The notes under the pieces: generated by a model | Seen by the model: only the letters and a program-made list of their open reading frames with translations | The model's database searches: none | What the model was told of the DNA's origin: nothing | Assembly (NCBI GenBank): GCA_038061995.1 | Contig: JBBTYA010000002.1 | Span: 1-60,511 of the forward strand | Reading direction: 5' to 3' | DNA length: 60,511 nt | Source: Patescibacteria group bacterium | GTDB taxonomy: Bacteria; Patescibacteriota; Minisyncoccia; 2-02-FULL-40-12; GWA2-44-9 | Shown: one piece after another, positions 5,033-38,726 of the stretch | Layout of the letters: the number at the start of each line of letters is the position of its first letter | Numbering within the stretch: the stretch's first letter is position 1 | Program-made: the position numbers and the translations under genes

Positions 5033-5063
5033 CAATGGTCGCTGACTGGTTTATACTTTCACT

Positions 5064-6931: not shown

Positions 6932-6995
6932 AAAACGGGTTGATTTTAGCTGCCCATCGTGCTAGGATGGGGCGCTTGTACGTCACTGTATTTCT

Positions 6996-9323
6996 ATGGC
7001 CACCATTTCAATTCCAGAAGAACTGCCTTTAATTCCGTTGAAAAATACGGTGCTTTTTCCGAAGATTGTCATGCCGCTGGTCGTGCAGCGTCAGAAATCT
7101 GTGCATGCCTTGGATGTTGCTATGGCGCGCGACCAGCTCGTGTGTTTTGTCGCACAGAAAGATATGCGCGACGATGTCTCCGCTGATGACTTTTATCGCG
7201 TTGGTGTTGTCGGCCGTGTCATTTCCGTCTTCCGTCTTCCCGACGGTTCCGCAAAAGTAGACGTCGAAGGTATTGTGCGTGTACGTCTTGAGAGTGTACT
7301 CCAAGATGATCCGCTATTCCGCGTGCGCGTAACTGCGATGCCACTCCAATACGCACATGAAGATCTCCCAACACAAGTACTCTTGCGTCGAGTGATTGAT
7401 CAGTTTTTAAAGATCTCTGAACTGCGCTCAGTCCAGGCGGTTGCTCCAGAAGTGGCGTTCATGATTTCTAATAGTAAAGATATCGAGCAGGTCATTAGCT
7501 TCGTCGCGGTAAACGTGAACCACGGCGGCCCTGAAGATCAGCAACGAATCCTTGAGCAGGTAGCAAGTAAAGATGCGCTCTCGAACCTCAATGTACTTAT
7601 AGCGCGCGAGTTAGAGATTCTTGAAACGGAACGATCCCTTGCTCGCGAAACCAAAAAGAAAATTGGTAAAATGCAGCGCGAAATGTTTTTGCGTGAGCAA
7701 ATGAAGAGCATTGAAAAAGAGCTTGGCGTCGATGATGAGCAGGCGGAGTTCGATGTGCTGAGGGAAAAAATCCTTGCGGCGCACATGCCCGAAGAGACCG
7801 AAGCTAAGGCGCTCAAAGAATTGGGTCGCCTTGCGCGCATGCCAACCTATAGCCCAGAGACATCGTACATTCGTACCTATTTAGACTGGCTGATCGAATT
7901 GCCGTGGCAAGAAATCTCTCAAGAGAAGATTGATCTCAAAGAAGCTGAAAAAATCCTCCACACCGACCACCATGGCATGGAGAAGGTAAAGGAGCGTATT
8001 TTAGAGTACATCGCAGTGAAAAAGAAAGTTGCGAAACTGCGCGGCCCTATTCTGTGTTTTGTTGGCCCGCCAGGAACGGGCAAGACGTCTGTAGGTAAAT
8101 CTATCGCCCGCGCGCTTGGACGCACATTTGTGCGTATGTCGTTAGGTGGTATTCGCGATGAGGCAGAGATTCGCGGCCATCGCCGTACGTACGTTGGAGC
8201 GATGCCAGGCCGTATTATTCAGAGCATCAATAACGCCAAGGTGAAAAACCCGGTGATTATGCTTGATGAGATTGATAAGATCGGTGCCGACTTCCGCGGT
8301 GACCCATCTGCAGCATTGCTTGAGGCATTGGATCCAGAACAAAATAGTTCCTTCTCGGACCACTATTTAGAGGTTCCGTTTGATCTCTCCGACGTGCTTT
8401 TCATTGCAACCGCGAATGCGCTCGATACTATTCCACCAGCATTGCGCGACCGTCTCGAAATGATCCGTTTTCCGGGATATACCGAATTGGAAAAAATTGA
8501 GATCGCAAAACAGTTTATTTTACCAAAGGTGCTAGAGAACCATGGTCTCACGAAGCGTTCGGTCACATTCCCAATTCCCGTATTAAAAGATATTGTCACC
8601 AAACACACCTATGAAGCAGGTGTGCGTGATCTCGAGCGCCAGATCGCCACCATCGTACGTAAGGCGACACGTCAATTAGTGCAAAATCCAAAGAAGACAT
8701 CAATCGCGATTAATCCAGCTACACTACACACCTATTTGGGCCCCGTGAAGTTTACGCATCAGAAAGCAGAGGCAAAAGATGAAGTAGGCGTCGCAACGGG
8801 TATGGTGTGGATGCCAACGGGCGGAGATGTGCTCACTATTGAAGCAACCATGATGCCGGGTAAGGGCCGCCTTACGCTCACTGGCCAGTTAGGTGATATG
8901 GCGCGAGAGTCTGCGCAGGCCGCTTTGAGTTTTGCTCGTGGCTATGTAGCGAAACAGAAAAAATCCAAAGAAGATTTTGGTGCTTTTGATATTCATATTC
9001 ACCTTCCTTCGGGCGCTATTAAAAAAGATGGACCTTCCGCAGGTACGGGGCTAGCAACTGCGCTCATTTCACTTTTCTCTGGAGTGCCGGTACGTCGTGA
9101 CGTTGCGATGACTGGTGAGGTCACGTTGCGCGGAAAGGTGCTTGAAATTGGGGGCGTGAAAGAGAAGGTGCTTGGCGCACATCGCGCAGGCATTCGTCAC
9201 GTGATCCTTCCTATGGAGAATAAAAAGGATCTTGAAGATGTTCCTGCAGAGATAAAGAAGCGGATTACTATCCATTTTGCACGCACGATGGAAGACGTGC
9301 TCAAGATCGCACTACGCGCATAA
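6996..9323 (+). CDS. lon: ATP-dependent protease La
   Basis: LON N-domain, GPPGTGKT, RRTYVGAMPG, KKDGPSAG catalytic Ser, IGGVKEK. Confidence 0.98.
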   Translation: MATISIPEELPLIPLKNTVLFPKIVMPLVVQRQKSVHALDVAMARDQLVCFVAQKDMRDDVSADDFYRVGVVGRVISVFRLPDGSAKVDVEGIVRVRLESVLQDDPLFRVRVTAMPLQYAHEDLPTQVLLRRVIDQFLKISELRSVQAVAPEVAFMISNSKDIEQVISFVAVNVNHGGPEDQQRILEQVASKDALSNLNVLIARELEILETERSLARETKKKIGKMQREMFLREQMKSIEKELGVDDEQAEFDVLREKILAAHMPEETEAKALKELGRLARMPTYSPETSYIRTYLDWLIELPWQEISQEKIDLKEAEKILHTDHHGMEKVKERILEYIAVKKKVAKLRGPILCFVGPPGTGKTSVGKSIARALGRTFVRMSLGGIRDEAEIRGHRRTYVGAMPGRIIQSINNAKVKNPVIMLDEIDKIGADFRGDPSAALLEALDPEQNSSFSDHYLEVPFDLSDVLFIATANALDTIPPALRDRLEMIRFPGYTELEKIEIAKQFILPKVLENHGLTKRSVTFPIPVLKDIVTKHTYEAGVRDLERQIATIVRKATRQLVQNPKKTSIAINPATLHTYLGPVKFTHQKAEAKDEVGVATGMVWMPTGGDVLTIEATMMPGKGRLTLTGQLGDMARESAQAALSFARGYVAKQKKSKEDFGAFDIHIHLPSGAIKKDGPSAGTGLATALISLFSGVPVRRDVAMTGEVTLRGKVLEIGGVKEKVLGAHRAGIRHVILPMENKKDLEDVPAEIKKRITIHFARTMEDVLKIALRA

Positions 9324-14994: not shown

Positions 14995-16134
14995 ATGGAA
15001 CTTCGTTTTCTTCTTGTCGGTGGCGGCTCTGGTGGGCATGCGTTTCCGCTTGCTGCTATCGGTCGCGCACTTGGTGAGCGCGTTACTGCGCAAAGTTACA
15101 CTCCTCGCATCCTTATGCTTGGTATCGGTGGTCGCGATGGGTTTCTTGCTCGCGCCGCAACGGAGTATGGGTTTGCATACACGTCTATTTTTGCAGGGAA
15201 GACGGATCGTAGCATTGTGCGCTTGCCGTGGGAGGCGTTCAAAACAAGCGTTGGCTTTTTGCAATCGCTATGGCACCTTCTCTGGTTTATGCCCGATGCG
15301 GTTATTAGTAAGGGCGGATACGATTCACTGGCACCGGCTCTTGTCGCATGGCTCTATCGCATCCCACTGTTTCTCCATGAGTCTGACGCTGTTCCCGGCT
15401 CGGTACAGCGCATCGTGACGCCCTTTGCAAAGAGTGTGTTTCTAGGGTTTAAAGAGGCTCAGCGTTTTTTTGGTACAACGCCTACGCTCGTAACGGGGAA
15501 TCCAGTGCGCCCCAACATCACAACGGGTAATCGCGAGAGGGCGATAACAACCTTTCATGTACAGAAAGAGATCCCAACACTTTTCGTTCTTGGAGGGAGT
15601 CAGGGTGCACAACAAATAAACGATATTATTCTTAGCGGTATTTCTGAAATAACAGAAGCGTATAATGTCATCCACCAGTGTGGTACGGAAAAACATCCTG
15701 CCGTACAAGCGGAACGCGAGCGTCTCATTCGTGATGGTGCGGGTTCGTACGGAGATCGGATTGCCGCTCGATACAGCGCAGTCCCATTTCTTGACGGACA
15801 AGAGCTCGCAGATGCGTATGCGCTCGCAGACGTCGTGATTGCCCGCGCGGGCGCCGGTACGCTCGCGGAGCTTTTGGTATTAGGGAAGCCGGCCGTTGTG
15901 GTGCCGCTCGCATGGGCGGCCCACGGACACCAGCTGGCGAATGCTGCAGCGGTTGCAACCTATGGCGTGCGCATCGTTGAGGGGGCGAATATTACGCCGC
16001 ATATTCTTATGAATCAGGTGCGTGCACTTCTTGATCCCAGTGAGCGCGACCGCGTGAGCGCTCTTATGCGTACGGGCGCACAGCCAGATGCCGCTATGCG
16101 TATTGCAGATGCCGTGCTCACGAGTATACTCTAA
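14995..16134 (+). CDS. murG: MurG glycosyltransferase
   Basis: GGGSGGH, SKGGY, HESD, GNPVR, GGSQGA, RAGAGT, HQLANA. Confidence 0.93.
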   Translation: MELRFLLVGGGSGGHAFPLAAIGRALGERVTAQSYTPRILMLGIGGRDGFLARAATEYGFAYTSIFAGKTDRSIVRLPWEAFKTSVGFLQSLWHLLWFMPDAVISKGGYDSLAPALVAWLYRIPLFLHESDAVPGSVQRIVTPFAKSVFLGFKEAQRFFGTTPTLVTGNPVRPNITTGNRERAITTFHVQKEIPTLFVLGGSQGAQQINDIILSGISEITEAYNVIHQCGTEKHPAVQAERERLIRDGAGSYGDRIAARYSAVPFLDGQELADAYALADVVIARAGAGTLAELLVLGKPAVVVPLAWAAHGHQLANAAAVATYGVRIVEGANITPHILMNQVRALLDPSERDRVSALMRTGAQPDAAMRIADAVLTSIL

Positions 16135-16139
16135 CCACC

Positions 16140-16967
16140 ATGTCGTGGCGTACTATCGGTTTTGAGACTCACAAAAAGCGCTGGGAACAAGGGCTCCCTA
16201 GTGGAGCTCACGCATTTTTGTGGTCCGGTCTTGGAGGTATCGGAAAGCGCACATTCGCGCTCGAGCTTATCGAGCGCATACAGCCAAACCCGGGAGCGCG
16301 TATCATTATTGCGCCCCAAGACGATTCGGGGGACCACTCCATCTCCATTGAAGCGGTTCGAGACATTATTCCGCTTACCGCGCTTGCATCTGCTCACGGG
16401 CCACTGTGCATTATCGTGGACGACATTGAGTCGCTCACGCGCGAGGCGGCAAACGCTTTTTTAAAAACACTTGAAGAGCCGCGCGGCCCTACACTCTTTA
16501 TCGGCATTACGAGCCGTCCAGGATCTGTCCTTCCCACTATTCGTTCTCGGTGTATTGGAGAATCATTTCCATCGCATAGCGACGCTGTCATTGCTGCGCT
16601 TCCGGAAATACAATCATTAAAAAAGGAAGATCGCGAACAGGCTGTTGCCATAGCATGCGGGCGTATCGGTTGGGTAAATCGCGCTCACGCCTCTGAAACA
16701 CTTGTGGAGTTGTGCGCTTATGCTGCCGCATTTGAGAAGTTGCAAACACAGAGCGTGGCAGAACGCTTTGTGTTTGCACAAAAGCTTATTGCAGATGAGG
16801 GCCTTTCTGACGCGCTTGATGTGTGGGTCGCAGCCGCGCATCGAAACTCTTCCAACTTCGCCTCGCGGCCTCACGTGCTGCGCGGCCTTTTAGATCTCGC
16901 AGAAAGTGCGCGATTTACGAATGCAAATCAGCGCATTGCGCTTGAAAGCTTTCTTATGAGTTTCTGA
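16140..16967 (+). CDS. holB: DNA polymerase III delta-prime subunit
   Basis: HAFLWSG..GIGK, AANAFLKTLEEP, LPTIRSRC. Confidence 0.88.
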   Translation: MSWRTIGFETHKKRWEQGLPSGAHAFLWSGLGGIGKRTFALELIERIQPNPGARIIIAPQDDSGDHSISIEAVRDIIPLTALASAHGPLCIIVDDIESLTREAANAFLKTLEEPRGPTLFIGITSRPGSVLPTIRSRCIGESFPSHSDAVIAALPEIQSLKKEDREQAVAIACGRIGWVNRAHASETLVELCAYAAAFEKLQTQSVAERFVFAQKLIADEGLSDALDVWVAAAHRNSSNFASRPHVLRGLLDLAESARFTNANQRIALESFLMSF

Positions 16968-17005
16968 CTTTCGTTTCTCCCGCTCCTCTGATACACTTGG
17001 CAGGT

Positions 17006-17563
17006 ATGTATCAAGCACTTATTCAGTCAAAAAAGAAGGATTTTGATGGTGTTTTTGCCTTTGCACAACAGGAGGCGTCTATGTTGCGCACGGGTCGGGC
17101 GCACAGCAGTATCGTTTCCGATGTTCCTGTGGAGTATCTCGGCTCCCGTCTGACCGTAAAAGAACTCGCTACAATCACTGTTCCTGAACCTCGTACCATA
17201 TTCATTCAGCCGTGGGACAAGGGAGCGCTCTCTGCTATCGAGTCGGGTATCCGCGCGAGCTCTTTAGGGCTGAACCCAGTTGTTGATGGCACTACTGTTC
17301 GACTCACGATCCCATCGCTTACAGAAGAACGTCGAAAAGAGTTAGTACGCACACTGAATAGCAAAATGGAGGAGGCGCGTATTCGTATCCGCCAAGTTCG
17401 TGAAGATATTTTAAAGAAGGTGCAAACGGCGGTGCGTGAAAAAGAAGCTCGCGAAGATGATCTACGTCATGCGAAAGACGCGGTGCAAAAGATTGTTGAC
17501 GACCTCAATAAGAAAATTGATACACTTGCACAGGCAAAAGAGCAAGAACTCATGCAATCATAA
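17006..17563 (+). CDS. frr: Ribosome recycling factor
   Basis: LRTGRA, IQPWDK, LGLNP..DG, PSLTEERRKEL. Confidence 0.96.
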   Translation: MYQALIQSKKKDFDGVFAFAQQEASMLRTGRAHSSIVSDVPVEYLGSRLTVKELATITVPEPRTIFIQPWDKGALSAIESGIRASSLGLNPVVDGTTVRLTIPSLTEERRKELVRTLNSKMEEARIRIRQVREDILKKVQTAVREKEAREDDLRHAKDAVQKIVDDLNKKIDTLAQAKEQELMQS

Positions 17564-18648
17564 TGACCGCAATTCTCTTCATCCTCGTCATTAGTTTGCT
17601 GATCTTTATCCATGAGCTTGGCCATTTTATTATGGCGAAGCGTGCAGGCATGCGTGTTGAAGAATTTGGATTTGGCTTTCCCCCGCGTCTCTGGGGAGTG
17701 ACGCGTGGAGAAACGGTTTACTCTATAAACTGGATTCCGTTCGGGGGATTCGTAAAAGTGTTTGGGGAGGACGGCGAGCATGCGGCATCTCCTCGTAGTT
17801 TTTCTGCCGGCACTGCCTGGCAACGATTTGCGGTTCTTGTCGCTGGCATTGTGATGAACTTTTTGCTCGCAGTTGTATTTCTCACCGTCAACAATGCGGT
17901 GGGTGTTCGAACGGCGCTTGATGAAGCTGACCAGGCTATGATCGCCGCGGCAACGCATAAGGCGGTTTATATTGCTCGTGTAGCCCCCGAGAGCCCCGCA
18001 GAAGCCGCAGGGATGCGCACATTGGATGTATTAGTCTCTGCACGACGTGGCGACGTGCTACAGTCCATTATGACCGCGGCTGATGTGCAAACATTTACGA
18101 ATACATACAAGGGCGAAACGGTACAATTTACACTGAAGCGTGGTGAAGAAATGCTTGTGCGCGATGTCGCGCTTCGGGCCGATCCGCCAGTGGGACAGGG
18201 ACCACTGGGTATCTCTCCATTGTTGATCGGCAAGGTCTCGCATCCGTGGTACGAAGCTCCTCTTCGTGGTTTCCTTGATGCGGCACGCCTTACGTGGGTG
18301 ACGGTGCAGGGATACGCATCACTTCTAGCCCAACTGGTAACAACGGGAACAGTGAGCGCTGATCTCTCTGGCCCTATCGGTATCGCGTCGCTGACGGGCC
18401 AGGCCGCTCGCGTGGGCTGGGATTATCTCATCCAGTTTATTGCGATGATCTCTATCAACTTGGCCGTATTAAACGCATTCCCGTTCCCAGCACTTGATGG
18501 CGGAAGAATCCTCTTTCTGGCGATAGAAAAAATCCGCGGCGCGCCTCTTGCGCATACCACAGAAGGACTCGTGAATGGCGTGGGATTTCTTGTACTGCTT
18601 CTTGCGATGATCCTCATCACCGCTCGTGACGTGATGCAATTATTCTAA
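17563..18648 (+). CDS. rseP: RseP-like M50 intramembrane metalloprotease with PDZ domain
   Basis: HELGH, PFGGFVK, NLAVLNAFPFPALDGGR. Confidence 0.93.
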   Translation: MTAILFILVISLLIFIHELGHFIMAKRAGMRVEEFGFGFPPRLWGVTRGETVYSINWIPFGGFVKVFGEDGEHAASPRSFSAGTAWQRFAVLVAGIVMNFLLAVVFLTVNNAVGVRTALDEADQAMIAAATHKAVYIARVAPESPAEAAGMRTLDVLVSARRGDVLQSIMTAADVQTFTNTYKGETVQFTLKRGEEMLVRDVALRADPPVGQGPLGISPLLIGKVSHPWYEAPLRGFLDAARLTWVTVQGYASLLAQLVTTGTVSADLSGPIGIASLTGQAARVGWDYLIQFIAMISINLAVLNAFPFPALDGGRILFLAIEKIRGAPLAHTTEGLVNGVGFLVLLLAMILITARDVMQLF

Positions 18649-18652
18649 CGAT

Positions 18653-19900
18653 ATGCGATTTTCAAAACTACTTACAAAAACACTCCGCCATGCTCCTGCT
18701 GATGAAAGCGCAGTGAATGCGCAGCTTCTTGCGCGTGGGGGATTCGTACACAAGGAAATGGCGGGTGTGTATAGCATACTGCCCCTCGGTCTTCGTGTTG
18801 TCGAAAAAATCGTGCGTATTATCGCAGAAGAAATGGATGCCATCGGCGGGGTGCAGATGAGAACGTCGGTGCTTCAGAACAAGGACATATGGGAAAAGAC
18901 AGGACGTTGGGATGATGCCGTCGTGGACAATTGGTTTAAAACAACTCTCAAAAGCGGCGGAGAAGTTGGTCTCTCATTCACGAACGAAGAAGCATACGCG
19001 GCAATCGTCAAAAATTTTGTGAGCTCGTATAAAGATCTTCCCGTCTACCCCTACGATTTTAAAACTATCTTTCGCAATGAAGCACGTGCGAAGAGTGGCA
19101 TTCTCCGTGGTCGGGAATTTTATTGGAAAGCACTTTACTCGTTTTCAAAAAACAAGGAAGAGCACGATGTTTTCTACGAACATGCGAAAGAGGCATACCG
19201 CCGCGTTTTCGAACGCGTAGGCATTGGCGCGCGTACCTACCAGACATTCGCATCGGGCGGGACATTCTCAAAATACTCACACGAGTTTCAAATGCTCTCA
19301 GATGCCGGTGAAGACACTATTTACGTGCATAAAGAAAAGGGCGTTGCGGTGAATCGCGAGGTGCTTACTGATGAAGTACTCGCAGACCTTAGTCTCAATC
19401 GCGACGAGCTTACTGAAGAGAAGGCTATCGAAGTGGGTAACATATTCTCGCTTGGGTTTAAGTTCTCGGAACCTTTTAACCTTACCTATAAAGATAGCGA
19501 AGGAAATGACGTGCCGGTGTTTATGGGCTCCTATGGCATTGGTATCACGCGACTCATGGGTGCGATTGTAGAGGCATCGCATGATGATCGTGGTATTATC
19601 TGGCCCGAGACGGTCGCTCCGTATCGTGTGCATCTTATATCGCTGGGGGATGCTGCTGAACGAGCCGATACTCTTTATGTCGCACTTACGAAAGAAGGGA
19701 TTGAAGTACTTTATGATGACCGCATAGACGCAACCGCCGGCGAGAAGTTTGTTGACGCAGATCTCATCGGTTGTCCTCTGCGGTGTGTGATTAGCGAGAA
19801 AACCGTTGCGCAAGACGTGATCGAGATGAAGCGTCGTGCTGTGTCTGAGCCAGAGCTTGTCACCTACGAAGAACTCATGAACGCGTGCCGTTCTCTCTAG
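18653..19900 (+). CDS. proS: Prolyl-tRNA ligase (short form)
   Basis: FRNEARAKSGILRGREF, IEVGNIFSLG, MGSYGIGITR, anticodon domain DADLIG. Confidence 0.95.
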   Translation: MRFSKLLTKTLRHAPADESAVNAQLLARGGFVHKEMAGVYSILPLGLRVVEKIVRIIAEEMDAIGGVQMRTSVLQNKDIWEKTGRWDDAVVDNWFKTTLKSGGEVGLSFTNEEAYAAIVKNFVSSYKDLPVYPYDFKTIFRNEARAKSGILRGREFYWKALYSFSKNKEEHDVFYEHAKEAYRRVFERVGIGARTYQTFASGGTFSKYSHEFQMLSDAGEDTIYVHKEKGVAVNREVLTDEVLADLSLNRDELTEEKAIEVGNIFSLGFKFSEPFNLTYKDSEGNDVPVFMGSYGIGITRLMGAIVEASHDDRGIIWPETVAPYRVHLISLGDAAERADTLYVALTKEGIEVLYDDRIDATAGEKFVDADLIGCPLRCVISEKTVAQDVIEMKRRAVSEPELVTYEELMNACRSL

Positions 19901-19945
19901 ATCTTTGCGTCCCCAGAGGCTTTCTGCTAGGGTTGACGTGCTCTC

Positions 19946-21007
19946 ATGCTCAGTAAATTTTTTGGACTCTGGTCAAAGGATATTGGCATCGATTTAGGTA
20001 CGGCAAATACCCTCGTCTATGTGCGCGGCAAGGGCATTGTTATTAATGAACCTTCGATCGTCGCACTCAACCAAAAGACTGGAAAAATTCTTGCTATCGG
20101 CGAAGGCGCGCGCCGTATGGTTGGCCGTACGCCAGGTCACATTGTCGTAACGCGCCCGATGGTAAATGGCGTTGTTTCTGACTTCGACGTCACCGAGCAG
20201 ATGTTGAAGTATTTTATTGATCGCGTTCATCGCGAAGGTTTCACCCTATTGCCGCGTCCTCGAGTTGTCGTCGGTATTCCTTCTGGCGTTACAGAAGTGG
20301 AGAAGCGTGCTGTGGAAGACGCAACATATAACGCCGGCGCTCGCGAAGTATTTCTTATAGAAGAGCCCATGGCAGCTGCTATCGGTGCTCGTTTACCCGT
20401 ACAAGAAGCTGTTGCGAATGTCATCGTAGACATGGGCGGCGGAACTACCGAAGTTGCCGTGATTTCTATGGGAGGTCTCATTGCTTCGCGCTCTCTCCGT
20501 ATCGCGGGAGATAAGCTTATTGATGATATCATCCGCTATATGCGCGACGAGCGGAATATTCTTATTGGTGAAGCAACCGCAGAAAATTTAAAAGTAACCC
20601 TTGGTTCCGCACACCCACTCCAGGAAGAATTAAAAGGTACGGTGCGTGGGCGAGACCTGGTCTCTGGTTTGCCACGAGAAATCGCCGTATCATCACATGA
20701 TATTCGTGAGGCAATGCAGCGTTCTATCAGAAGCATTGTCACGGCGATTAAAGATACTATCGAACAAACGCCACCAGAGCTTACCGCTGATCTTATCAAT
20801 CGTCAGGTCTATTTAGCGGGTGGTGGGGCGCTCTTGCGCGGCTTAGACACTATGATCGCCGCAGAGACGCAGCTCAATGTTACCGTTGTCGACGACCCAC
20901 TCACGGCAGTCGCTCGTGGATGTGGTATGGTGCTAGAGAATATTGATGAGCTTCGATCGATGCTCGTGGCGATTGATCGCCAAGCATATACATCGCTCTC
21001 ATCGTAG
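19946..21007 (+). CDS. mreB: Rod shape-determining protein MreB
   Basis: DIGIDLGTANT, IEEPMAAAIGA, VDMGGGTTE, GGGALLRG. Confidence 0.98.
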   Translation: MLSKFFGLWSKDIGIDLGTANTLVYVRGKGIVINEPSIVALNQKTGKILAIGEGARRMVGRTPGHIVVTRPMVNGVVSDFDVTEQMLKYFIDRVHREGFTLLPRPRVVVGIPSGVTEVEKRAVEDATYNAGAREVFLIEEPMAAAIGARLPVQEAVANVIVDMGGGTTEVAVISMGGLIASRSLRIAGDKLIDDIIRYMRDERNILIGEATAENLKVTLGSAHPLQEELKGTVRGRDLVSGLPREIAVSSHDIREAMQRSIRSIVTAIKDTIEQTPPELTADLINRQVYLAGGGALLRGLDTMIAAETQLNVTVVDDPLTAVARGCGMVLENIDELRSMLVAIDRQAYTSLSS

Positions 21008-21010
21008 CGA

Positions 21011-21799
21011 ATGGCGCGTCCTTCAGGAATACGGAAACTAAGCATTGCCCTTGTGAGCATCCTCTGTATTGGGGGTGTGAATGCTGCAACGGGCGGAGCG
21101 CTCCAACGCCTTGCGCAACGCGTTGTCGAGCCTGCTGTAGTTCACATGCCAGGCCTCACGCGTGCGATCCACTGGGTTGGCCAGTGGCAGATTACTCATG
21201 AAACGCAAGATGATCTTCAGGCGCACATCGTTTCTTTGTCGGGCCGCTTGGCGCACACACAAGATCTTGTGGATGAGAATACATTTCTGCGTTCCCTACT
21301 CAGGCTTTCACTTCCCGAAACGTACGAACGCGTCGAGGCTCGCTTATGGAGTGTCCGCATGGACGGAGACGGCATCAGCGCGCGTATTCAGCGTGGGTCA
21401 CGCGACGGTATCCGCGAAGGCGGCATCGTTATCTCTCAAGAAGGCGCGCTTGTAGGAGTGGTACGCTCTGTCGCCGAGACAAGCGCCCATATCCAGCTGA
21501 TTATGGATCCAACATTTTCTGTTGCCGCGCGTACGCTTGAGGGCGGTGTCGATCTCCTTGTGCGAGGCGACGCAGATAAAGGATTGCGCCTTGAGCTGGT
21601 CTCTGTGGAAGATGCGATACAAACGGGGGAGACGCTGGTTACTACTGGCGCCGACTCAATCCCTAGCGGCCTTATGATTGGGACTATCGAAAGCGTTGTG
21701 CGAGATGCGGCTGCAGTATTTCAATCAGTGCGAGCATCTCCACTCTTTGAGCGTGACTTTGATGGCCGTGTGCTGGTACTCGTTCCTCCGAAACTCTAA
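21011..21799 (+). CDS. mreC: Rod shape-determining protein MreC
   Basis: Follows mreB; coiled coil ENTFLRSLL, GSRDGI, LVGVV, GETLVTTG. Confidence 0.88.
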   Translation: MARPSGIRKLSIALVSILCIGGVNAATGGALQRLAQRVVEPAVVHMPGLTRAIHWVGQWQITHETQDDLQAHIVSLSGRLAHTQDLVDENTFLRSLLRLSLPETYERVEARLWSVRMDGDGISARIQRGSRDGIREGGIVISQEGALVGVVRSVAETSAHIQLIMDPTFSVAARTLEGGVDLLVRGDADKGLRLELVSVEDAIQTGETLVTTGADSIPSGLMIGTIESVVRDAAAVFQSVRASPLFERDFDGRVLVLVPPKL

Positions 21800-22323
21800 T
21801 GTATCCATCTATACTCTCACTGCGTACCTCATGGCTTTTCCTCGGCGCGTTGTGCGCGGCACTGTGGGGCGTCTCGTTTCTTTTTCCCCTTACCTATCCA
21901 GTCATATACACCACGCTTGCAAGCGTGGTTATCTTTGGAGGTGTGGCGTGGACGGGGCGTATCCTCGTTAGCGCATGGATGTGCGAGATTCTCTTTGGCG
22001 CCTCTTTCGGAGCATATATCGTACCTGCGCTGTGCATGGTCGCAGTGTATGCGTTATTCCAGTCCGTTGTAGTAGTGCAGCCCATCGAAGATATTCGCAC
22101 CCCCTCTTTTTCACAGGTTGGTATTGCGGTGTGTGGTGTCTACGCCCTGGCGTTTACAGGATGGGCCATTGATGCGCTCGTGTTCCACGCGCTCTCGACG
22201 GAAAGCCTGCGCTCGCGGGTGTACGTATGGGCACGATGGTCATGGATGCTCACCAGTGCCTTTGTAAGTGTCTGCGTGTGGCTTGTTGGGGTAGCGCTGG
22301 CGCGCACCAGTGCCTTGAGGTAG
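21799..22323 (+). CDS. Hydrophobic protein in the MreD position
   Basis: About 5 TM segments, between mreC and PBP2; assignment is mainly positional. Confidence 0.5.
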   Translation: MYPSILSLRTSWLFLGALCAALWGVSFLFPLTYPVIYTTLASVVIFGGVAWTGRILVSAWMCEILFGASFGAYIVPALCMVAVYALFQSVVVVQPIEDIRTPSFSQVGIAVCGVYALAFTGWAIDALVFHALSTESLRSRVYVWARWSWMLTSAFVSVCVWLVGVALARTSALR

Positions 22324-22333
22324 AGTTATCCAT

Positions 22334-24271
22334 ATGCCGCGATGGTGGTTTTTTAAGCGTCGCACTACTGCGTATGCCGTCTCACTGGACGGTGATGATT
22401 GGGTTGCTCCTGAAGAAACACTTGTTGATGTTGGAAGTAGCCACGTTGACGTAGAGCGCCCTGTCGATACCCGTATTTTTTCTCTCGCTCGAGGCACGGT
22501 GTGGGTGATAGCTATCGCACTGATGTGTGCATCAGGCGCCCTTGCCGTACAGCAACACGCAACGCTTTCCGCAGCTGCTGAGGCAAATCGTACCGTGCAG
22601 ATTTCAGTAAGTCCTCCACGCGGAGCGATTGTAGATCGTATGGGGACTCCTTTGGTAAAAAACACGCCTAGCTTTCAAATCGCAATTGTATCTCGCGAGC
22701 TTCCCACAGATGCCACAGAGCGCGAAGCCCTCTTCCATACGGTCGCAACGATATTAGGAGAAGATCCGAGCGTATTTGTACCACAATTAGGAGAGCGAGC
22801 TCGTGCGCAAAGCGTTTTTTTCGCCGCAACGGGTGTTCCTAAAGAGGCCACTGTGCAGTTCGCACAGTTGTTGGGGAATGGTGTGCATGTGGTAACAACC
22901 ACAGATCGCGCGTATCTTGATGGCGAGCAGTTTTCCACGGTGCTAGGCTACACGGGGCGAGTATCAGTTGCCGACCGTGAGCGCGACGCAACGTATGCTC
23001 AATCAGATCGTGTCGGTCGCGCCGGCGTCGAAGCCTTCTACGAAGAGGAGCTCCGTGGCTCACACGGTAGTATCACGTTCTCTCGCGGAGAGGAGAGCGT
23101 GCAAAAGAACGCTACCCCAGGGCATACAGTTGTGCTTGAAGTTGATGCCGATGTGCAAAAGGCACTGTATAATAGTCTCTTTTCGGTCCTGCAAGGTGCG
23201 GCAGTTTCTGGCGCTGCGGCAATCGCGCAAGATCCACAGACGGGTGCGGTGCTTGGTATGGTGAGCTTTCCATCCTATGACAACAACCTTTTCGCTGACG
23301 GCATCTCACAGTTGGAATATCAACGGCTGTTCACGTCATCGCGAAAACCACTCTTTAATCGTGTGATCGGCGGTACGTATAACCCGGGCTCTACGATTAA
23401 GCCCTTCATCGGCATGGCAGCAGTGGAAGAAAATATTATCAGACCTTCAGACAACATTTGGGAATGTGTGAACATCACGATTCCCAACCCCAGCAACCCG
23501 TCGCGGCCATACGTGTTTGAAAACTGGCGCCCAGAACACGGACCATTCAACCTCGCGAGAGCAATAGCAACGTCGTGTAACATTTATTTCTTTACCGTTG
23601 GTGGCGGGCGCGATGCATTCCAGGGCCTTGGCATTGATCGCATTTCTTCGTATTTACAGAAAGCATTTGCTGATAAGGTGTTAGGCATTGATCTTCCAGG
23701 AGAAGTTGCCGGCTTCGTGCCAACTGCTACCTGGAAGCAAGAAAAGCGTGGAGAGCCGTGGTATCAGGGTGATACGTACAACGTTTCCATTGGCCAAGGA
23801 GATCTTTCTGTTTCTCCGCTGTGGCTGAACACATACATTAGCGCCATTGCGAATGGTGGGACGCTCTACCAGCCGCGCGTTGCGCAACGAATCCAATATG
23901 GTGCTGGTACTCCCGATACTGTTTTTCAGCCAACAGCGCTGGCTAAGCTACCGTTTAGCGGAACGACCATTGCTGCAATGCAAAAAGCAATGCGTGAAAC
24001 GGTTCTTACAGGGACAGCAAAATTATTAGGAGATCTCCCGGTCTCATCTGCGGCAAAAACAGGAACAGCCGAAGTGACGAAGCACGGAAAGATCAACTCG
24101 CTCTTTACCGCGTTTGCGCCCGCAGAGAATCCAAAAGTTGCTATTACCGTGTTGGTTGAAAGTTCGATCTATCGAGAGGGGTATGCGAGCCGCACGGCAC
24201 ACACGTTCTTAAAGTGGTTCTTTACGCGCCCATCCCCGACATCCCCAGCCCAGCCCTTGCCATCCCAGTGA
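22334..24271 (+). CDS. mrdA: Penicillin-binding protein 2
   Basis: PPRGAIVDR, GRAGVEAFYE, PGSTIK (SxxK), SCN (SxN), KTGT. Confidence 0.94.
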   Translation: MPRWWFFKRRTTAYAVSLDGDDWVAPEETLVDVGSSHVDVERPVDTRIFSLARGTVWVIAIALMCASGALAVQQHATLSAAAEANRTVQISVSPPRGAIVDRMGTPLVKNTPSFQIAIVSRELPTDATEREALFHTVATILGEDPSVFVPQLGERARAQSVFFAATGVPKEATVQFAQLLGNGVHVVTTTDRAYLDGEQFSTVLGYTGRVSVADRERDATYAQSDRVGRAGVEAFYEEELRGSHGSITFSRGEESVQKNATPGHTVVLEVDADVQKALYNSLFSVLQGAAVSGAAAIAQDPQTGAVLGMVSFPSYDNNLFADGISQLEYQRLFTSSRKPLFNRVIGGTYNPGSTIKPFIGMAAVEENIIRPSDNIWECVNITIPNPSNPSRPYVFENWRPEHGPFNLARAIATSCNIYFFTVGGGRDAFQGLGIDRISSYLQKAFADKVLGIDLPGEVAGFVPTATWKQEKRGEPWYQGDTYNVSIGQGDLSVSPLWLNTYISAIANGGTLYQPRVAQRIQYGAGTPDTVFQPTALAKLPFSGTTIAAMQKAMRETVLTGTAKLLGDLPVSSAAKTGTAEVTKHGKINSLFTAFAPAENPKVAITVLVESSIYREGYASRTAHTFLKWFFTRPSPTSPAQPLPSQ

Positions 24272-27640: not shown

Positions 27641-28459
27641 ATGCCTGTACGTCCTCTTGCGACAACGTCCGTGCGTACGTCGGACCGATTTGCACGTCGG
27701 AGAGAGCGCCGCGGCCGCCTTTTACGCTGGGGCATGGGCATAGGTGCCTTTGTACTCGTTTCCGGAAGTGTGTACGCCTTTTTCTTTGCTCCGTGGCTTT
27801 CTGTTCGTTCTGTGGTAGTCGAAGGTGCACAGTCGCTGAATCCTGATGCGCTCCTTGCGCACATTGAAGCAGCGCGAGCACAACGCACATGGGGATACAT
27901 GCGCGAGCACTTTATGATTCCCGCTCGTCCCCAACACATTGCCACATCTCTTATAGCCGCGTTTCCAGCATTAGCAACAGTGACGACAGACAAGCGCTTT
28001 CCTCACACGATTGCTTTCACCGTGCACGAACGAACCCCCGTCGCGCAGTGGTGCGTTGCCAGTGAGTGCGCTCACATAGATGCCTCTGGTGTGCGCTGGG
28101 ACCCACTCGCAGAGGTCGCAGATCTTCCTGTGATCCGTGACATGCGGAACACTCAACGGTGGCCACAGGATGAAGCAACGATACTGCGCATGATAGAAAC
28201 ACTACGCCCACAGTTGCGCGCTATGCGCATTGAGCCGCTTGCATGGGATCTTCCCGAAACTGCTGTTCCTGAATTGCGCGTCCCCACCACAGAGGGGAGT
28301 GAGCTTCGCTTTAGTCTCGAAGACGATCTCCAAAAGCAGACAACCGTGCTTGCGGTTTTTTTACGTGATACCTCTGGTGGCATAGACGCCTTTGAGTATG
28401 TAGATATGCGCATTCCAGGGCGTGTGTATTCAAAGAAAAAAGCCACAAGCGGGCTATAA
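27641..28459 (+). CDS. FtsQ/DivIB-like cell division protein
   Basis: N-terminal TM, POTRA-like segment (SVVVEGAQ), KRFPHTI..ER, C-terminal EYVDMRIPGRVY. Confidence 0.8.
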   Translation: MPVRPLATTSVRTSDRFARRRERRGRLLRWGMGIGAFVLVSGSVYAFFFAPWLSVRSVVVEGAQSLNPDALLAHIEAARAQRTWGYMREHFMIPARPQHIATSLIAAFPALATVTTDKRFPHTIAFTVHERTPVAQWCVASECAHIDASGVRWDPLAEVADLPVIRDMRNTQRWPQDEATILRMIETLRPQLRAMRIEPLAWDLPETAVPELRVPTTEGSELRFSLEDDLQKQTTVLAVFLRDTSGGIDAFEYVDMRIPGRVYSKKKATSGL

Positions 28460-28468
28460 GAGGGACTA

Positions 28469-28496
28469 TTGACTCACTCGCTGGGTATGCTATAAT
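28469..28496 (+). promoter_or_regulatory. Sigma70-type promoter
   Basis: TTGACT-16 nt-TATAAT with extended -10 TG. Confidence 0.85.
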
Positions 28497-28501
28497 AGAT
28501 G

Positions 28502-28773
28502 AAGCCTCCTAGTTCTTTAAACAACCGGGCCGCAAGGCTCGGAAAAAGCAAAGAAACAGCATTCCTTGTTTTTTCCGGCTCTTGGGCTCGTGTGTTTACC
28601 GGGTCACCGGCAACTTTGGCTGTCCGTCTGCAGCGGTCTTCAGCCAGGAGGCAAGTTGAGTCTTCCGATTCCGTTCCTAGGCGCCTTGCCTCCAGAGGCG
28701 TGTAGGTTTCCTCATCCGGGCCATTAGGCCCTTCCTGCCCCCCAAAGCTTTTTGCTGCGGGGGGTGCTTTTTT
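28502..28773 (+). ncRNA. Candidate structured non-coding RNA (unassigned)
   Basis: Lies between a strong promoter and a terminator; GCAA-tetraloop hairpin, 12-bp stem, long-range GCCTCCT/AGGAGGC pairing; next gene is convergent. Confidence 0.6.
28737..28773 (+). terminator. Intrinsic terminator
   Basis: CCCCCC..AGC-tttt-GCT..GGGGGG followed by a T6 tract. Confidence 0.7.
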
Positions 28774-28781
28774 ATATAAAC

Positions 28782-30212
28782 CTACGGAAGCACGAGCACG
28801 AGCGTGCCGTCAGAGATGCGCACTCTACTGTACTGCTCTGGCGAGAGATACAAAATATTTTTAATATTCTGCTGTTCTTCAGTAGCTGTTTGCGTGAGAT
28901 AGCGGAGCGGAGCACTTTGCGCCGTTGTGCGTGCAATAATAATGACTGGCCCGCCGTGTTCGCGGATGCGCTTGAGCATCGCGATATCATCTGCGCGATA
29001 CGTTTCGCGAACGTCTGGGTTTGTGCCCCATATAACATGTGCCCGCACTGTTTCAGCAACGCCCATAGCAAGTACAAAAGTGAGTGCCACCATGACTGCG
29101 GTAAGTGCTCCTTCTTGCACGTGCATGCTTCCATGAGGGAGGCGAATGTCGAGGTTGTGAGGATGGTTGGCATGGTACCAATCAGCGAGACGATCCATCA
29201 GCCACCACAGCGCTTGTCCAGCGAAGAGGAACACGACAGGGGCGATACCAGCAAGACGTAGTGTAACGCGCATGTCATCAACTAGCGCCCCGCCTACAAG
29301 TCCGCAGAAGAACCATGCGACAAGAAGGGTGTGTGTCGGGGATACGTGGCTACTATCGTGGAGCTCTTTGAGGATTTTTATAATATTACGGAGAAGGCCA
29401 ACGATAGCGAGTGCGGCTACTGGCCAGAACACCAGCGAGCTCCCTACGATACCATTCTGCCACTGCGTGATGCTTGGCATGAAGAGTCGTGCAAGTGTAG
29501 TGCGGACAGCACCGCTCCAATCGGAAACCAATGCCGTACCTGCTGGAGCGGGAAGAATATTTTGCGCGCCAAAGTATGAAACGAGCAAGAGCGCAATGAT
29601 ACCAAAGAGCACGAGTCCATTGCGAAGTGAGTCATGCGCACGTTGTGCGCGAGCGTCTTGCGTGTGTACACGCGTCATGTGGAGATACGCAGCCGCAGTA
29701 ATAGCGCCAGCTAACAAGAGTGGGCGCGCGAGCGTATGTGTTGAGAGTGCCGCCGCCCAAATGATAGCTGCAGCGGCAAATGTCCCATGAGTATGCGTAG
29801 CAAGCGCCATCCACAGCGCATAAAGGCCCCACGTGGCGAAGAACGCAAGACTCGCTTCAGGAAGCGCGGTGCGCGAGATGAGGAAATACCAGAACGAGCC
29901 AGCATACAAGATGCTCGCGAGCGAAGCGATCTCCCAAGAGAACAGTCGGCGCGCTAAGAAGTAGAGTCCAGCAACTGATCCAATACCAAAGAAGAGCGAG
30001 GGAACGCGCGCCGCCCACGGCGTTGAGCCAAATGCGCGTACCGATATATTTTGGAGCACGCCATAGACACCGCTTTCTGGTTCTGAGAGCGCGCGAATTG
30101 CATGCTGCGCTTCAATGCCAGAGATGCCCGCAGGAATTCCTCCGATGTTAAACAACGAAACAACGAGCGTACCAAGAATAAGTGCGCCAAGCGCGATTCG
30201 GTGTAGATGCAT
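28782..30212 (-). CDS. GT39/ArnT/PMT-like membrane glycosyltransferase
   Basis: FGSTPWAARVPSLFFG, SRTALPE, multiple TM helices; acidic DE motif appears degenerate. Confidence 0.75.
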   Translation of the reverse strand: MHLHRIALGALILGTLVVSLFNIGGIPAGISGIEAQHAIRALSEPESGVYGVLQNISVRAFGSTPWAARVPSLFFGIGSVAGLYFLARRLFSWEIASLASILYAGSFWYFLISRTALPEASLAFFATWGLYALWMALATHTHGTFAAAAIIWAAALSTHTLARPLLLAGAITAAAYLHMTRVHTQDARAQRAHDSLRNGLVLFGIIALLLVSYFGAQNILPAPAGTALVSDWSGAVRTTLARLFMPSITQWQNGIVGSSLVFWPVAALAIVGLLRNIIKILKELHDSSHVSPTHTLLVAWFFCGLVGGALVDDMRVTLRLAGIAPVVFLFAGQALWWLMDRLADWYHANHPHNLDIRLPHGSMHVQEGALTAVMVALTFVLAMGVAETVRAHVIWGTNPDVRETYRADDIAMLKRIREHGGPVIIIARTTAQSAPLRYLTQTATEEQQNIKNILYLSPEQYSRVRISDGTLVLVLP

Positions 30213-30286
30213 AATGCTAAAAATATACCACATTATGCGCAGTGTGTGCGGTTGGACAAGTGGAAAGTGTGCTATACTTTTTCTGT

Positions 30287-30686: not shown

Positions 30687-33113
30687 GTGTCCGGCATTTT
30701 TCTCATTGCCTACGGTGCAGTGTTTATGCTCACGGCGACAGCCGCGCTCGTCTTTTTTGGCTCTCTTCGTACGCGCGGACGCATCATGCGTGGCATGGAT
30801 ATGTCGCTCTACCGCGTGACATTGCCGCGCGAAGCGCAGCCAAACCAAAAACAAGATCGAGAGCTCATCGCAGTCATGGAGCAGCTTTTCGCTTCCATGA
30901 CCAGCATCCACGCACGTGGGTGGAACAAATTTTTATATGGCGAACCGTACATTGCGCTCGAAATGGCGGTGCATCACGTAGGGGAAGATATTTTCTTTTA
31001 CTGTGCGGTTCCCAAAAACTATGAAGCGGTGTTCGTGAAACAGGTGCACGGCCTGTATCCAACTGCAGAAGTGGTGCAGTCTCCAGAATACACCATCTTT
31101 CACCCCACGGGCGCATTTACTGGCGCGTATCTCTCGCAGAAAAAAGATGCCATCTTGCCATTCCGCACCTATACACGTCTTGAGAGCGATCCTCTTGGCG
31201 GCATCATTTCTGCGTTATCGAAACTCGAAAAAGAAGGTGAAGGAGCCGCGATTCAGGTACTCATCCGTCCTTCCCATAAAGAGAGCGTGCGCTCACTCGC
31301 ACAGCGTGTAGCGCAAGAGATGCAAAAGGGCAATCCGTTTACGGAAGCTTTTTCGCGCGCGACCGCGAGTAAGAAAAAAGAAGAAGAGCAGGCAAAGCCA
31401 GCAACGGCATTTGAAGACGATGTTATTAAAGCGCTTCAGAGTAAGGCATCGCGCCCACTCTTTGATACCAACGTACGCATTCTTGTGTCTGCAGAAACAC
31501 AAGATCGTGCCGATGCCATGTTGAAAGATATCCAGTCTTCATTTGTGCAACTGGGAAGCCCTGACTTAAACGAGCTTGTCCCTGTGGGGATGCGTGCAAA
31601 AGGCAAAGAGAAACTCGCATATGAATATGCATTTCGCATGTTTAATGACGGCTACACTATGCGGCTTTCGAGCGAAGAGCTTGCAAGCATCTACCATTTT
31701 CCATTACAGCACAGCCAAGCGGCACGCGTAGCATTCTCTCACGTGAAAGCGGCAGAGCCACCAACAAACCTCCCCGAGCAGGGTATTATTCTTGGTACGA
31801 ATGTGTTCCGTGGGCAAGAACGTCCCGTGCGCATGACTGACACCGATCGCCGCCGTCACCTCTATGTCGTTGGGCAAACGGGCACGGGTAAGACAACGTT
31901 CATGAAGCACATGATTGCGCAGGATATCCGTGCCGGAAAGGGTGTGTGTATTATTGATCCGCACGGAGATTTCGCAGAGTATGCTCTCTCCGTTGTTCCT
32001 AAAGAGCGTGTTGACGACGTCATCTATTTCAACCCCGGTGATACTGACCGTCCACTGGGATTCAACATCTTAGAATTTGATCCCACAAAACCAGAGCAAA
32101 AAACATTTCTTGCAAATGAACTGCTCGCCATTATTAAATCGCTCTACAAATCGCTCCCCGAAGCATTCGGCCCGATGTTTGAGCAGTACTTTAAGAACGC
32201 CATCTTATTGGTGATGGACGTGTATGAGCGGGCTGTGCGTGAGAAGGGTTCCAAAGAAGGTCTTGATCACCTCATTCCCACCATGGCGGACATTCCGCGC
32301 GTGTTAGTAGACGAAGCATATCGCGCAGAGAAGTTAGCGCTTGAAGACAACCCACTCGTGAAATCATTCTGGGAACTGGAGGCAGAAAAAGCAGGTGGCG
32401 ATGCGGCATTGGCCAACATGGCGCCTTATATCAACTCAAAGCTCAACCCATTTCTGGCGAATGATTACTTGCGCCCTATCGTAGGCCAAAAGGTGAGCGC
32501 ATTTGATCTGCGCGCTATCATGGATGGCAAAAAGATACTCATCGTGAACCTTTCTAAGGGCCGTATCGGTGAGATGAACGCCAACTTACTTGGCATGATG
32601 ATCGTCTCGCGCCTGCTGATGGCCGCACTAGGGCGCATTGATCTCTCCGAAGAACAGCGCAATGATTTCTATCTCTACATCGATGAATTCCAAAACGTCA
32701 CCACAGATAGCATCACTACTATTCTTTCGGAAGCGCGCAAGTACCGCCTTGATCTCATCATTGCACACCAGTACATCAAACAGCTTCCCGAAACGATTCG
32801 CGACGCAGTGTTTGGGAATGTTGGTTCGCAAATTGCATTCCGCATCGGTGCCGATGATGCCGAAGCACTGAAGAATAAATTTGAACCAGTATTTACACCC
32901 GCAGATCTCACCAGCATCGATAACTTCAATGCGCACGTACGCATGTTGATCGATGGCCAAAATGCTCGCCCGTTTTCCATCCAAACCATTCGCGAGCCCG
33001 CAGGGGATCAGCGGCTGGTGGGTGCATTAGCCGAACTTTCTCGTTTGACGCACGGGCGTCCCCGTGCATTAGTAGAGGAGGAATTAAAGAGTGGCTATCG
33101 GAACAATGCCTAG
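30687..33113 (+). CDS. VirD4/TrwB/HerA-like ATPase with N-terminal TM (DUF87-like)
   Basis: RRRHLYVVGQTGTGKT Walker A, IDPHGD, YIDEFQN Walker B, SEARKYRL..AHQY..QL, FGNVGS. Confidence 0.88.
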   Translation: MSGIFLIAYGAVFMLTATAALVFFGSLRTRGRIMRGMDMSLYRVTLPREAQPNQKQDRELIAVMEQLFASMTSIHARGWNKFLYGEPYIALEMAVHHVGEDIFFYCAVPKNYEAVFVKQVHGLYPTAEVVQSPEYTIFHPTGAFTGAYLSQKKDAILPFRTYTRLESDPLGGIISALSKLEKEGEGAAIQVLIRPSHKESVRSLAQRVAQEMQKGNPFTEAFSRATASKKKEEEQAKPATAFEDDVIKALQSKASRPLFDTNVRILVSAETQDRADAMLKDIQSSFVQLGSPDLNELVPVGMRAKGKEKLAYEYAFRMFNDGYTMRLSSEELASIYHFPLQHSQAARVAFSHVKAAEPPTNLPEQGIILGTNVFRGQERPVRMTDTDRRRHLYVVGQTGTGKTTFMKHMIAQDIRAGKGVCIIDPHGDFAEYALSVVPKERVDDVIYFNPGDTDRPLGFNILEFDPTKPEQKTFLANELLAIIKSLYKSLPEAFGPMFEQYFKNAILLVMDVYERAVREKGSKEGLDHLIPTMADIPRVLVDEAYRAEKLALEDNPLVKSFWELEAEKAGGDAALANMAPYINSKLNPFLANDYLRPIVGQKVSAFDLRAIMDGKKILIVNLSKGRIGEMNANLLGMMIVSRLLMAALGRIDLSEEQRNDFYLYIDEFQNVTTDSITTILSEARKYRLDLIIAHQYIKQLPETIRDAVFGNVGSQIAFRIGADDAEALKNKFEPVFTPADLTSIDNFNAHVRMLIDGQNARPFSIQTIREPAGDQRLVGALAELSRLTHGRPRALVEEELKSGYRNNA

Positions 33114-38468: not shown

Positions 38469-38726
38469 ATGGCTTTCTTCGTGTATATTTTGAAGAGCGA
38501 GAAAGATAACGGGCTGTACGTTGGCATGTCGCAAGATGTAGGTAAGCGTCTCGCCTCGCATAATTTCGGATCCACTCGCTCAACAAAATATCGAAGGCCG
38601 CTGAAGGTGATTTATGTTGAAGAGTATTCTACGCGGGTAGAGGCACGTGCTCGGGAGAAGTTTTTAAAAAGTTACGCTGGCTCGTCTGAGAAGATGAGTA
38701 TCGTAGAACATTGCGGGGTCGTCTAA
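38469..38726 (+). CDS. Small GIY-YIG endonuclease
   Basis: FFVYILKS...LYVGMS..V.KRL..HN.G..RSTK.RRP...Y.E....EA..REK.LKS. Confidence 0.92.
   Translation: MAFFVYILKSEKDNGLYVGMSQDVGKRLASHNFGSTRSTKYRRPLKVIYVEEYSTRVEARAREKFLKSYAGSSEKMSIVEHCGVV

Follow-up and report, generated by a model that had tools for sequence, protein, structure and literature searches.

A conserved, structured non-coding RNA with a covarying two-state element, encoded between ftsQ and a convergent glycosyltransferase gene in Patescibacteria

What fills the space between an ftsQ-like gene and the gene convergent with it in a patescibacterial genome? In the window, by which we mean the whole 60,511-nt stretch that was analysed, this gap covers positions 28460-28781. 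A preliminary description had flagged 28469-28773 as an unassigned structured non-coding RNA, enclosed by its own promoter and a plus-strand terminator, with Shine-Dalgarno (SD)/anti-SD pairings that might control a micropeptide. Here we show that the gap contains a gene in its own right, conserved, non-coding and structured, whose RNA has a covarying two-state element. That this is a genuine RNA gene belonging to a new family seems to us very probable; in the contigs sampled, the family is confined to a group of Paceibacteria-type Patescibacteria. The explanation that we favour, on balance and with reservations given below, is a gene, present in single copy, whose product is a structured non-coding RNA from an uncatalogued family, with putative Nus-assisted synthesis and ordered folding.

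A stand-alone unit and its relatives in the ftsQ-PMT gap

The boundaries of the unit are set by the following features.

27641-28459, plus strand: FtsQ-like gene (weak POTRA_1 and FtsQ_DivIB_C matches)
28469-28496, plus strand: sigma-70 promoter with extended -10 element, TTGACT-16-TG-n-TATAAT (11/12 consensus matches)
28503-28773, plus strand: predicted non-coding transcript of ~271 nt, its 3´ end being the U-run
28737-28773, plus strand: intrinsic terminator, a G/C stem with an internal loop followed by UGCUUUUUU (minimum-free-energy fold)
28782-30233, minus strand: convergent glycosyltransferase gene (PMT_2/PMT match)

The promoter hexamers TTGACT (28469-28474) and TATAAT (28491-28496) lie 16 nt apart with TG at 28488-89, and the predicted transcript start, 28503, was placed 7 nt past the -10 hexamer. 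The same promoter design, TTGAC[ATG]-16/17-TGnTATA[ACG]T, is found upstream of every homologue. The terminator is missed by a simple terminator scan because its stem has an internal loop. Promoter and plus-strand terminator thus stand around ~270 nt where the preliminary description had placed them, and the view that this is a unit of its own rather than a leader holds as well. In the window, and in almost every homologue, the downstream gene runs convergently, and the terminator closes the unit, which is not the arrangement of a riboswitch or other cis-acting leader.

Among 5.8 billion proteins, the window FtsQ has two close relatives, both 69% identical. The contigs of close relatives are L001, L002 and L003, the last from a complete 615-kb Paceibacterota genome, and more distant contigs were located through SerRS matches together with an FtsQ profile. 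The gene order GreA-LysS-SerS-FtsQ-[RNA]-PMT is present in ten contigs (L001-L003, L012, L014-L017, L020 and L022). FtsQ identity to the window is ~25-27% in the distant loci of the FtsQ alignment (L012, L013) and 27-29% in L014-L017 (P0128-P0130). The homologous RNAs range from ~270 to 680 nt and form five sequence clades in this one slot. Outside the window clade, each is a promoter-to-terminator unit in the ftsQ-PMT gap, with the following lengths.

L012: RNA of ~600 nt
L014, L015, L016, L017: RNA of ~680 nt
L020: RNA of ~455 nt
L022: RNA of ~315 nt

Within the window clade, the gap alignment revealed hardly any change in the promoter and the initial ~82 nt of the RNA, although FtsQ is only 69% identical. 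The 3´ end, comprising UUUCCUCAUCC, one hairpin and the terminator, is conserved too, while the middle is unalignable and of variable length, giving RNAs of ~270 to 500 nt. The 31-mers of 28462-28584 are present in many metagenome runs, in which contigs depart from the window just past 28582-84. Between distant members, BLASTN connected L022 to L017 (E 2e-8) and L014 (3e-5), and L012 to L020 (E 3e-9). A covariance model, R2, built from L012, L020, L014, L016 and L017 only, with the window clade left out, matched window positions 28503-28584 over its full length with 30.9 bits and an E-value, rough as such values are for covariance models, of 4.9e-5, the best in 117 kb. This was the single plus-strand match in the window; on the minus strand there is a weak echo (E 0.63) that overlaps this palindromic helix. 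R2 also matched the equivalent site in L001-L003. Since a second model built from all clades, R1, found nothing else in 174 kb, the element is single-copy in the window. The window RNA therefore shares with the other members of the ftsQ-PMT gap family the promoter, a G-Y-U-C-N-U-U leader, three strands (A, S and A´) arranged around a helix (H2), and the position between ftsQ and a convergent PMT gene. The comparison of syntenic regions proposed in the preliminary description thus had a positive outcome, as did the covariation analysis described below.

Other searches delimit this sample. An FtsQ search of genome contigs found no relatives, and exact 20-21-mer scans of the 5´ module in genome and metagenome contigs brought up only the H41 organism once more and, by chance, stretches within genes of unrelated bacteria. 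SerRS is a limited guide, as ~60% identity spans the whole phylum. No ftsQ follows serS in L018, L019 and L021, and the L013 contig ends 316 nt past ftsQ with no RNA in that stretch.

The RNA matched no catalogued family. With Rfam 15 at gathering thresholds, cmscan of the whole window gave a tRNA-Gln at 38712 as the sole match and no rRNA operon. Searching 28400-28850 (451 nt) with E up to 10, the best match was an unrelated small RNA (sRNA) at 21.5 bits against a 48-bit cut-off, and the models for 6S RNA (RF00013), signal recognition particle (SRP) RNA, RNase P and transfer-messenger RNA (tmRNA) gave no match. ARAGORN found no tmRNA in the window, there was no meaningful Rfam 15 match for the 600-nt and 680-nt homologues, and literature searches did not turn up this RNA. 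The comparison with Rfam that the preliminary description had proposed thus leaves its central claim, an unassigned structured non-coding RNA, standing, with neither an Rfam or tmRNA match nor a conserved open reading frame (ORF).

Two rival readings bear directly on these results. The RNA could be a strongly diverged housekeeping RNA missed by Rfam, whether an RNA polymerase-binding RNA of the 6S or Ms1 type or the RNA of SRP or RNase P. The strong promoter, conserved position, high degree of structure and probable abundance would suit such an RNA, and 6S RNAs are often missed by sequence models. Like 6S RNA and Ms1, the gap RNA stands alone and has a rod-like element. Yet even the 600-680-nt versions match none of the 6S, SRP, RNase P or tmRNA models. 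The end-to-end closing stem and large central bubble of the 6S architecture are also missing: in both the minimum-free-energy and centroid folds of the window RNA, the partner of the 5´ end is the middle of the molecule (28646-52) instead of the 3´ end, and a large bubble is lacking. The 270 to 680 nt size range, with a body that is unalignable between close relatives, is likewise unlike universal RNAs, and we rate this reading as very unlikely. The other reading, an mRNA for a small protein behind a structured leader, is extremely improbable. Two ORFs come into question, of 68 aa (28499-28705) and of 23 aa with a TTG start (28656-28727), and AGGAGG does lie 4 nt upstream of the TTG. The 68-aa ORF, however, starts 2 nt past the -10 hexamer, as had been remarked before, and it is also not conserved: L001 lacks its ATG, and in L002 and L003 a 4-nt insertion disrupts the reading frame. 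The 23-aa ORF falls in sequence that is unalignable between relatives, where the peptides downstream of the SD-like site are unrelated or absent, and the earlier micropeptide idea is not borne out. Nor do the distant homologues have an ORF in common. A conserved ORF with a start signal, as expected of a small-protein mRNA or type I toxin, was not found.

Several features of the surrounding genes and gaps were noted. In the window, an envelope/division cluster lies upstream at 14995-24271 (MurG, RRF, M50 protease, ProRS-like, MreB, MreC and a 645-aa ORF that occupies the place of the penicillin-binding protein (PBP, transpeptidase) gene of L012, L020 and L022), followed by GreA, LysRS, SerRS and FtsQ. 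At 30687-33113, an 808-aa DUF87/HerA and TrwB/TraG-like ATPase (type IV coupling-protein-like) adjoins a 146-aa protein without family assignment; the ATPase keeps its place next to PMT in L001-L003. For the H41 organism, the SerRS (L001:1725-2999) is only ~40% identical to those of the other relatives, and the L003 SerRS is 94% identical to the window's, which suggests that serS was swapped for a different type in one lineage with the gene order retained. In L024, a 364-nt G+C-rich gap (7277-7640) separates a 243-aa gene, possibly FtsQ-like, from a convergent PMT_2 gene; it contains no R1 or R2 match and no promoter or terminator match, and may be a different RNA in the same slot. In L012, ~170 nt between the ftsQ stop and the RNA promoter (6118-6290) are bounded by the inverted repeat CTAGGATTTTGTG ... 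CACAAGAATCCTAGG and absent in other homologues; this looks like a small inserted palindromic element of the miniature inverted-repeat transposable element (MITE) or repetitive extragenic palindromic (REP) kind. After the RNA terminator of the same contig, a second G+C-rich stretch of ~260 nt without an ORF (6940-7200) closes with a strong hairpin and T-run (7161-7191) shortly ahead of the PMT stop; it may represent another RNA or else the terminator region of PMT. In L014, the RNA terminator and the PMT gene are separated by an inserted 176-aa ORF without a Pfam match (4576-5106). This ORF comes with a promoter-like sequence of its own, and the closely related L016 lacks it. Finally, in metagenome run X4, one contig leaves the window sequence at 28584 and another is identical from 28627, with the break falling exactly at the end of strand A´. 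This pattern could be a strain mixture or allele exchange. We do not claim cassette exchange, as two strains, possible because run X5 of the same study holds the window allele, may explain the mosaic.

Fold and three-strand element

On the plus strand, the ~271 nt fold at -123.9 kcal/mol (z = -6.9), with none of 200 shuffles as stable, and the minus strand gives z = -4.9; the folding signal exceeds chance. All helices and sequence features listed in the preliminary description were recovered, among them the hairpin CCGGGCC-GCAA-GGCTCGG at 28525-28542, a 12-bp stem formed by 28540-51 with 28566-77, and the hairpin GGGCC/GGCCC at 28718-28731. The parts of the RNA, all on the plus strand, are listed below.

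28504-28512: 5´ strand of helix P1, GCCUCCUAG, anti-SD-like; pairs with 28646-28652, invariant in the window clade and absent in distant clades
28512-28522: boxA-like leader motif GUUCUUUAAAC, 10/11 to GYTCTTTAANA
28525-28531: strand A (CCGGGCC), 5´ arm of hairpin H1
28532-28535: GNRA tetraloop GCAA of H1
28536-28542: strand S (GGCUCGG), the common strand for A or A´; in alignment A6, its columns 46 and 49 covary with A and with A´ alike
28543-28574: H2, an A/U-rich helix of 28543-55 with 28562-74 and the 6-nt tip ACAGCA
28575-28584: strand A´ (CCGGCUCUUG), which pairs with S and extends H2 to a ~23-bp rod; sequence conservation stops here
28585-28645: variable body, unalignable between relatives; the window version comprises S2 (28585-90), which pairs with A, and hairpins at 28599-28610 and 28618-28645
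28646-28655: SD-like AGGAGGCAAG, 3´ strand of P1 or partner of 28685-28693
28681-28701: hairpin with GCCUCCA (anti-SD-like) in its loop; the stems differ among close relatives and the loop motif is kept
28707-28731: 3´ module, UUUCCUCAUCC and then hairpin GGGCC-AUUA-GGCCC

The conserved core has three strands, of which S can pair either with the upstream strand A, forming hairpin H1, or with the downstream strand A´, extending H2 to the ~23-bp rod. Both pairings are seen across the family. Every clade has the rod, as a nearly perfect duplex of ~22-25 bp. The H1 loop is GCAA or GAAA in 7 of 10 distinct homologues, the others having a 7-nt loop (L017), a 49-nt insert (L020) or UUUG (L022), and the insert in L020 is tolerated, as expected of a real hairpin. 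Covariation was scored on A6, the core alignment with the variable tips cut out. For H1 with H2, 96.9% of cells are paired and the covariation score is 0.464, compared with at most 0.152 for slid partners. For the rod, 93.8% are paired and the score is 0.387, compared with at most 0.204 for slid partners. In neither case did any of 500 shuffles reach the score. Two positions of S, columns 46 and 49, change together with both partners. At one, G to C in S is accompanied by C to G in A and by U or C to G in A´; at the other, C to U in S is accompanied by G to A in both A and A´. Between L012 and L020, an A to G change in S is met by U to C in both partners. RNAalifold on the six long homologues also recovered the rod (23 of 36 predicted pairs), with compensated changes in 14 of the 36.

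The A:S and S:A´ duplexes have similar energies, -6 to -15 kcal/mol. With the transcript taken as far as A´, 7 of 9 homologues favour the rod, by 2-6 kcal/mol; in the window the two states are near-isoenergetic (0.7 kcal/mol against the rod). Collectively, these observations make it probable that the bistable element is itself a selected feature. It resembles the metastable 5´ hairpins of hok mRNA and riboswitch expression platforms in that one strand has two exclusive partners, the upstream pairing is possible first, and the downstream partner is, in those 7 of 9 homologues, the more stable. Unlike those systems, the switch described here has no ORF, aptamer, terminator or SD decision attached.

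The tip of the rod varies greatly, from a 6-nt loop in the window clade to 89-121 nt in distant homologues. The motifs AAGUCAGYAUUCAG and UAGAAGAAG recur in the tips of clades 3-4 and are partly kept in clade 2, and the tip motif CUCUCG is exact in L012, L014, L016 and L022. With its tip domain down to a 6-nt loop, the window RNA is therefore a reduced, minimal family member. At the other end of the molecule, a UCAUYC-like motif ahead of a G+C-rich hairpin recurs in L012, L020 (UCAUCG) and L022. In L001 (4255-4345), the 3´ module has four successive G+C-rich tetraloop hairpins, three GGGCY-NNNN-RGCCC and one AGGCC-NNNN-GGCCU, versus one in the window (28718-28731), a local expansion of the hairpin unit. 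Two candidates considered by eye, a leader-to-tip pairing and a boxC-like GUGUGU at 28590-95, were dropped, as neither is conserved.

Clade-specific pairings and the boxA-like leader

A three-way SD/anti-SD pairing had been proposed in the preliminary description. AGGAGGC (28646-52) can pair with the 5´ GCCUCCU (28504-10) at -14.9 kcal/mol or with CUUGCCUCC (28685-93) at -18.0 kcal/mol. L001, L002 and L003 have this choice too: over the window clade, GGAGG has two possible CCUCC partners, at -10 to -18 kcal/mol. The bases flanking the GGAGG core change in step, being GGAGGCAAG/CUUGCCUCC in the window versus GGAGGUAGG/CCUUACCUCC in L003, and each relative displays the 3´ CCUCC motif in a hairpin loop on a stem of its own. 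The proposed pairings are therefore real and kept with compensating changes in close relatives. They are missing at the equivalent places in L012, L014, L016, L020 and L022, and the deep switch of the family is A/S/A´ (28525-28584). The SD/anti-SD exchange is a clade-specific second switch, not a family-defining one.

These elements could indicate a trans-acting base-pairing regulator, the anti-SD-bearing regulator of the preliminary description, in which GCCUCCUAG and the GCCUCCA loop (28688-28694) bind the SD regions of mRNAs and the internal AGGAGGC is a built-in mask, so that the RNA toggles between exposed and masked forms. The retention of both CCUCC pairings in the window clade with co-changing flanks, and of the 3´ loop while its stem turns over, would fit; C-rich seed loops of Gram-positive sRNAs are displayed in hairpin loops, and RNAIII and RsaE/RoxS, whose C-rich seed loops bind SD sequences, resemble the window clade with its CCUCC in a hairpin loop and at the 5´ end. 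The CCUCC motif here is limited to the closest relatives, however, whereas the distant homologues keep the 5´ core instead, and GGAGG/CCUCC could simply be stable G+C-rich helices. We regard a regulator of this kind as unlikely. Somewhat less likely still is that the conserved 5´ part is a biogenesis cassette of promoter, boxA and RNase III-cut ~23-bp rod, with the released part as the product; for the large versions this would be the rod-tip domain, for the window clade the variable 3´ body. The near-perfect rod present in every clade has the ~22-25 bp that RNase III needs, rRNA operons pair boxA with such a processing stem, and the tip domain holds conserved motifs in clades 2-4. On the other hand, the window-clade rod is almost invariant though its tip is only 6 nt, which is hard to explain for a mere cleavage site. 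Large structured RNAs offer another comparison. Like OLE, ROOL, GOLLD and raiA, the gap RNA has its own transcription unit, extends to several hundred nucleotides, has covarying helices and occurs in a narrow range of organisms. It has no sequence or model similarity to them (Rfam 15), and unlike in those families only the 5´ third is conserved across clades while the body turns over fast.

The second part of the explanation that we favour concerns the leader. In rrn leaders and lambda nut sites, boxA loads NusB-S10 and builds a termination-resistant, RNA-chaperoning polymerase. In the window, GTTCTTTAAAC matches the boxA consensus GYTCTTTAANA (PMC5725501) at 10 of 11 positions. Across the family, G1, U3, C4, U6 and U7 of the leader motif G-Y-U-C-N-U-U are invariant in 8 of 8 aligned homologues and the remaining leader varies; L022 also has GUUCUUU. 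In every homologue the motif lies 9-29 nt past the inferred start (~10 nt in the window), and H1 follows it after 2-9 nt. Among the invariant positions are C4 and U6, whose joint mutation abolishes SuhB association at the Escherichia coli suhB boxA (PMC5725501). The boxA sequences are UGCUCUUUAACA in E. coli and AUGAUCUUUGAAA in Bacillus subtilis, the latter just after a small 5´ hairpin (PMC13753749), and in the clade-3 homologues, as in these B. subtilis rrn leaders, a small 5´ hairpin directly precedes the boxA-like motif. As in rRNA leaders and lambda nut sites, the motif is near a hairpin, here GNRA-capped in most members, within an untranslated leader, and as in rRNA leaders a long duplex resembling a processing stem follows. 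Unlike at those sites, no rRNA or tRNA lies downstream, the cargo being the unit's own 150-550-nt RNA with an intrinsic terminator at its end, and position 5 of the motif varies. The hairpin is one arm of a three-strand switch, a feature not known from nut and rrn sites.

Several points weigh against the explanation that we favour. Boxes with at most one mismatch occur 15 times in the window, with 6.8 expected, and because the motif is short and chance matches are common, its function is argued by conserved position only. Position 5 varies (U, C or A), which may be unsuited to NusB, and no Nus-factor genes were found in window positions 1-21.8 kb. The intrinsic terminator would have to act despite any antitermination complex. 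The covariation scores come from ~5 independent lineages with tips removed and from shuffles that ignore relatedness. As for expression, a single ‘RNA’ run with the window sequence was found, and its one low-depth contig, which extends from ftsQ across the promoter and is ambiguous for that reason, may be DNA or read-through. Taken together, the leader sequences make boxA/Nus involvement a real possibility, to which we give somewhat less than an even chance.

Proposed working and significance

In the working that we propose, the leader motif would act as a boxA, with NusB and S10 loading on the nascent RNA as they do on rRNA operons. This loading would protect and chaperone the synthesis of an untranslated, highly folded RNA, which would thereby be completed and fold in order. 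H1 would form first and be replaced by the rod after A´ has been transcribed, and the loss of H1 would free strand A and the leader. In the window clade, a second exchange among the 5´ GCCUCC, GGAGGC and the 3´ CCUCC loop would follow, in which the freed 5´ end is captured by GGAGGC and the 5´ domain is closed. The rod is long enough for RNase III, so processing may occur. The finished molecule would most likely be a stable RNA acting in trans as part of a putative ribonucleoprotein. A bolder version, on the unlikely side in our view, is a stable RNA made like a miniature rRNA operon, with a boxA launch, A/S/A´ as an obligatory two-state timing device shared among the clades and a fast-evolving cargo of varying length, which could be the RNA subunit of a lineage-specific ribonucleoprotein tied to the flanking envelope/division genes.

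Patescibacteria have tiny genomes with little spare DNA. Nevertheless, a strongly promoted RNA gene of up to 680 nt has been kept in one slot across lineages whose FtsQ proteins are ~27% identical. Its description adds a family missed by current annotation (Rfam 15) and removes a spurious 68-aa ORF call from these genomes. If the leader motif does work as a boxA, the family would be a rare case of Nus-type transcription of an RNA that is neither rRNA nor a phage transcript, and, because one strand covaries with two competing partners, it would offer a compact natural model of ordered co-transcriptional folding.

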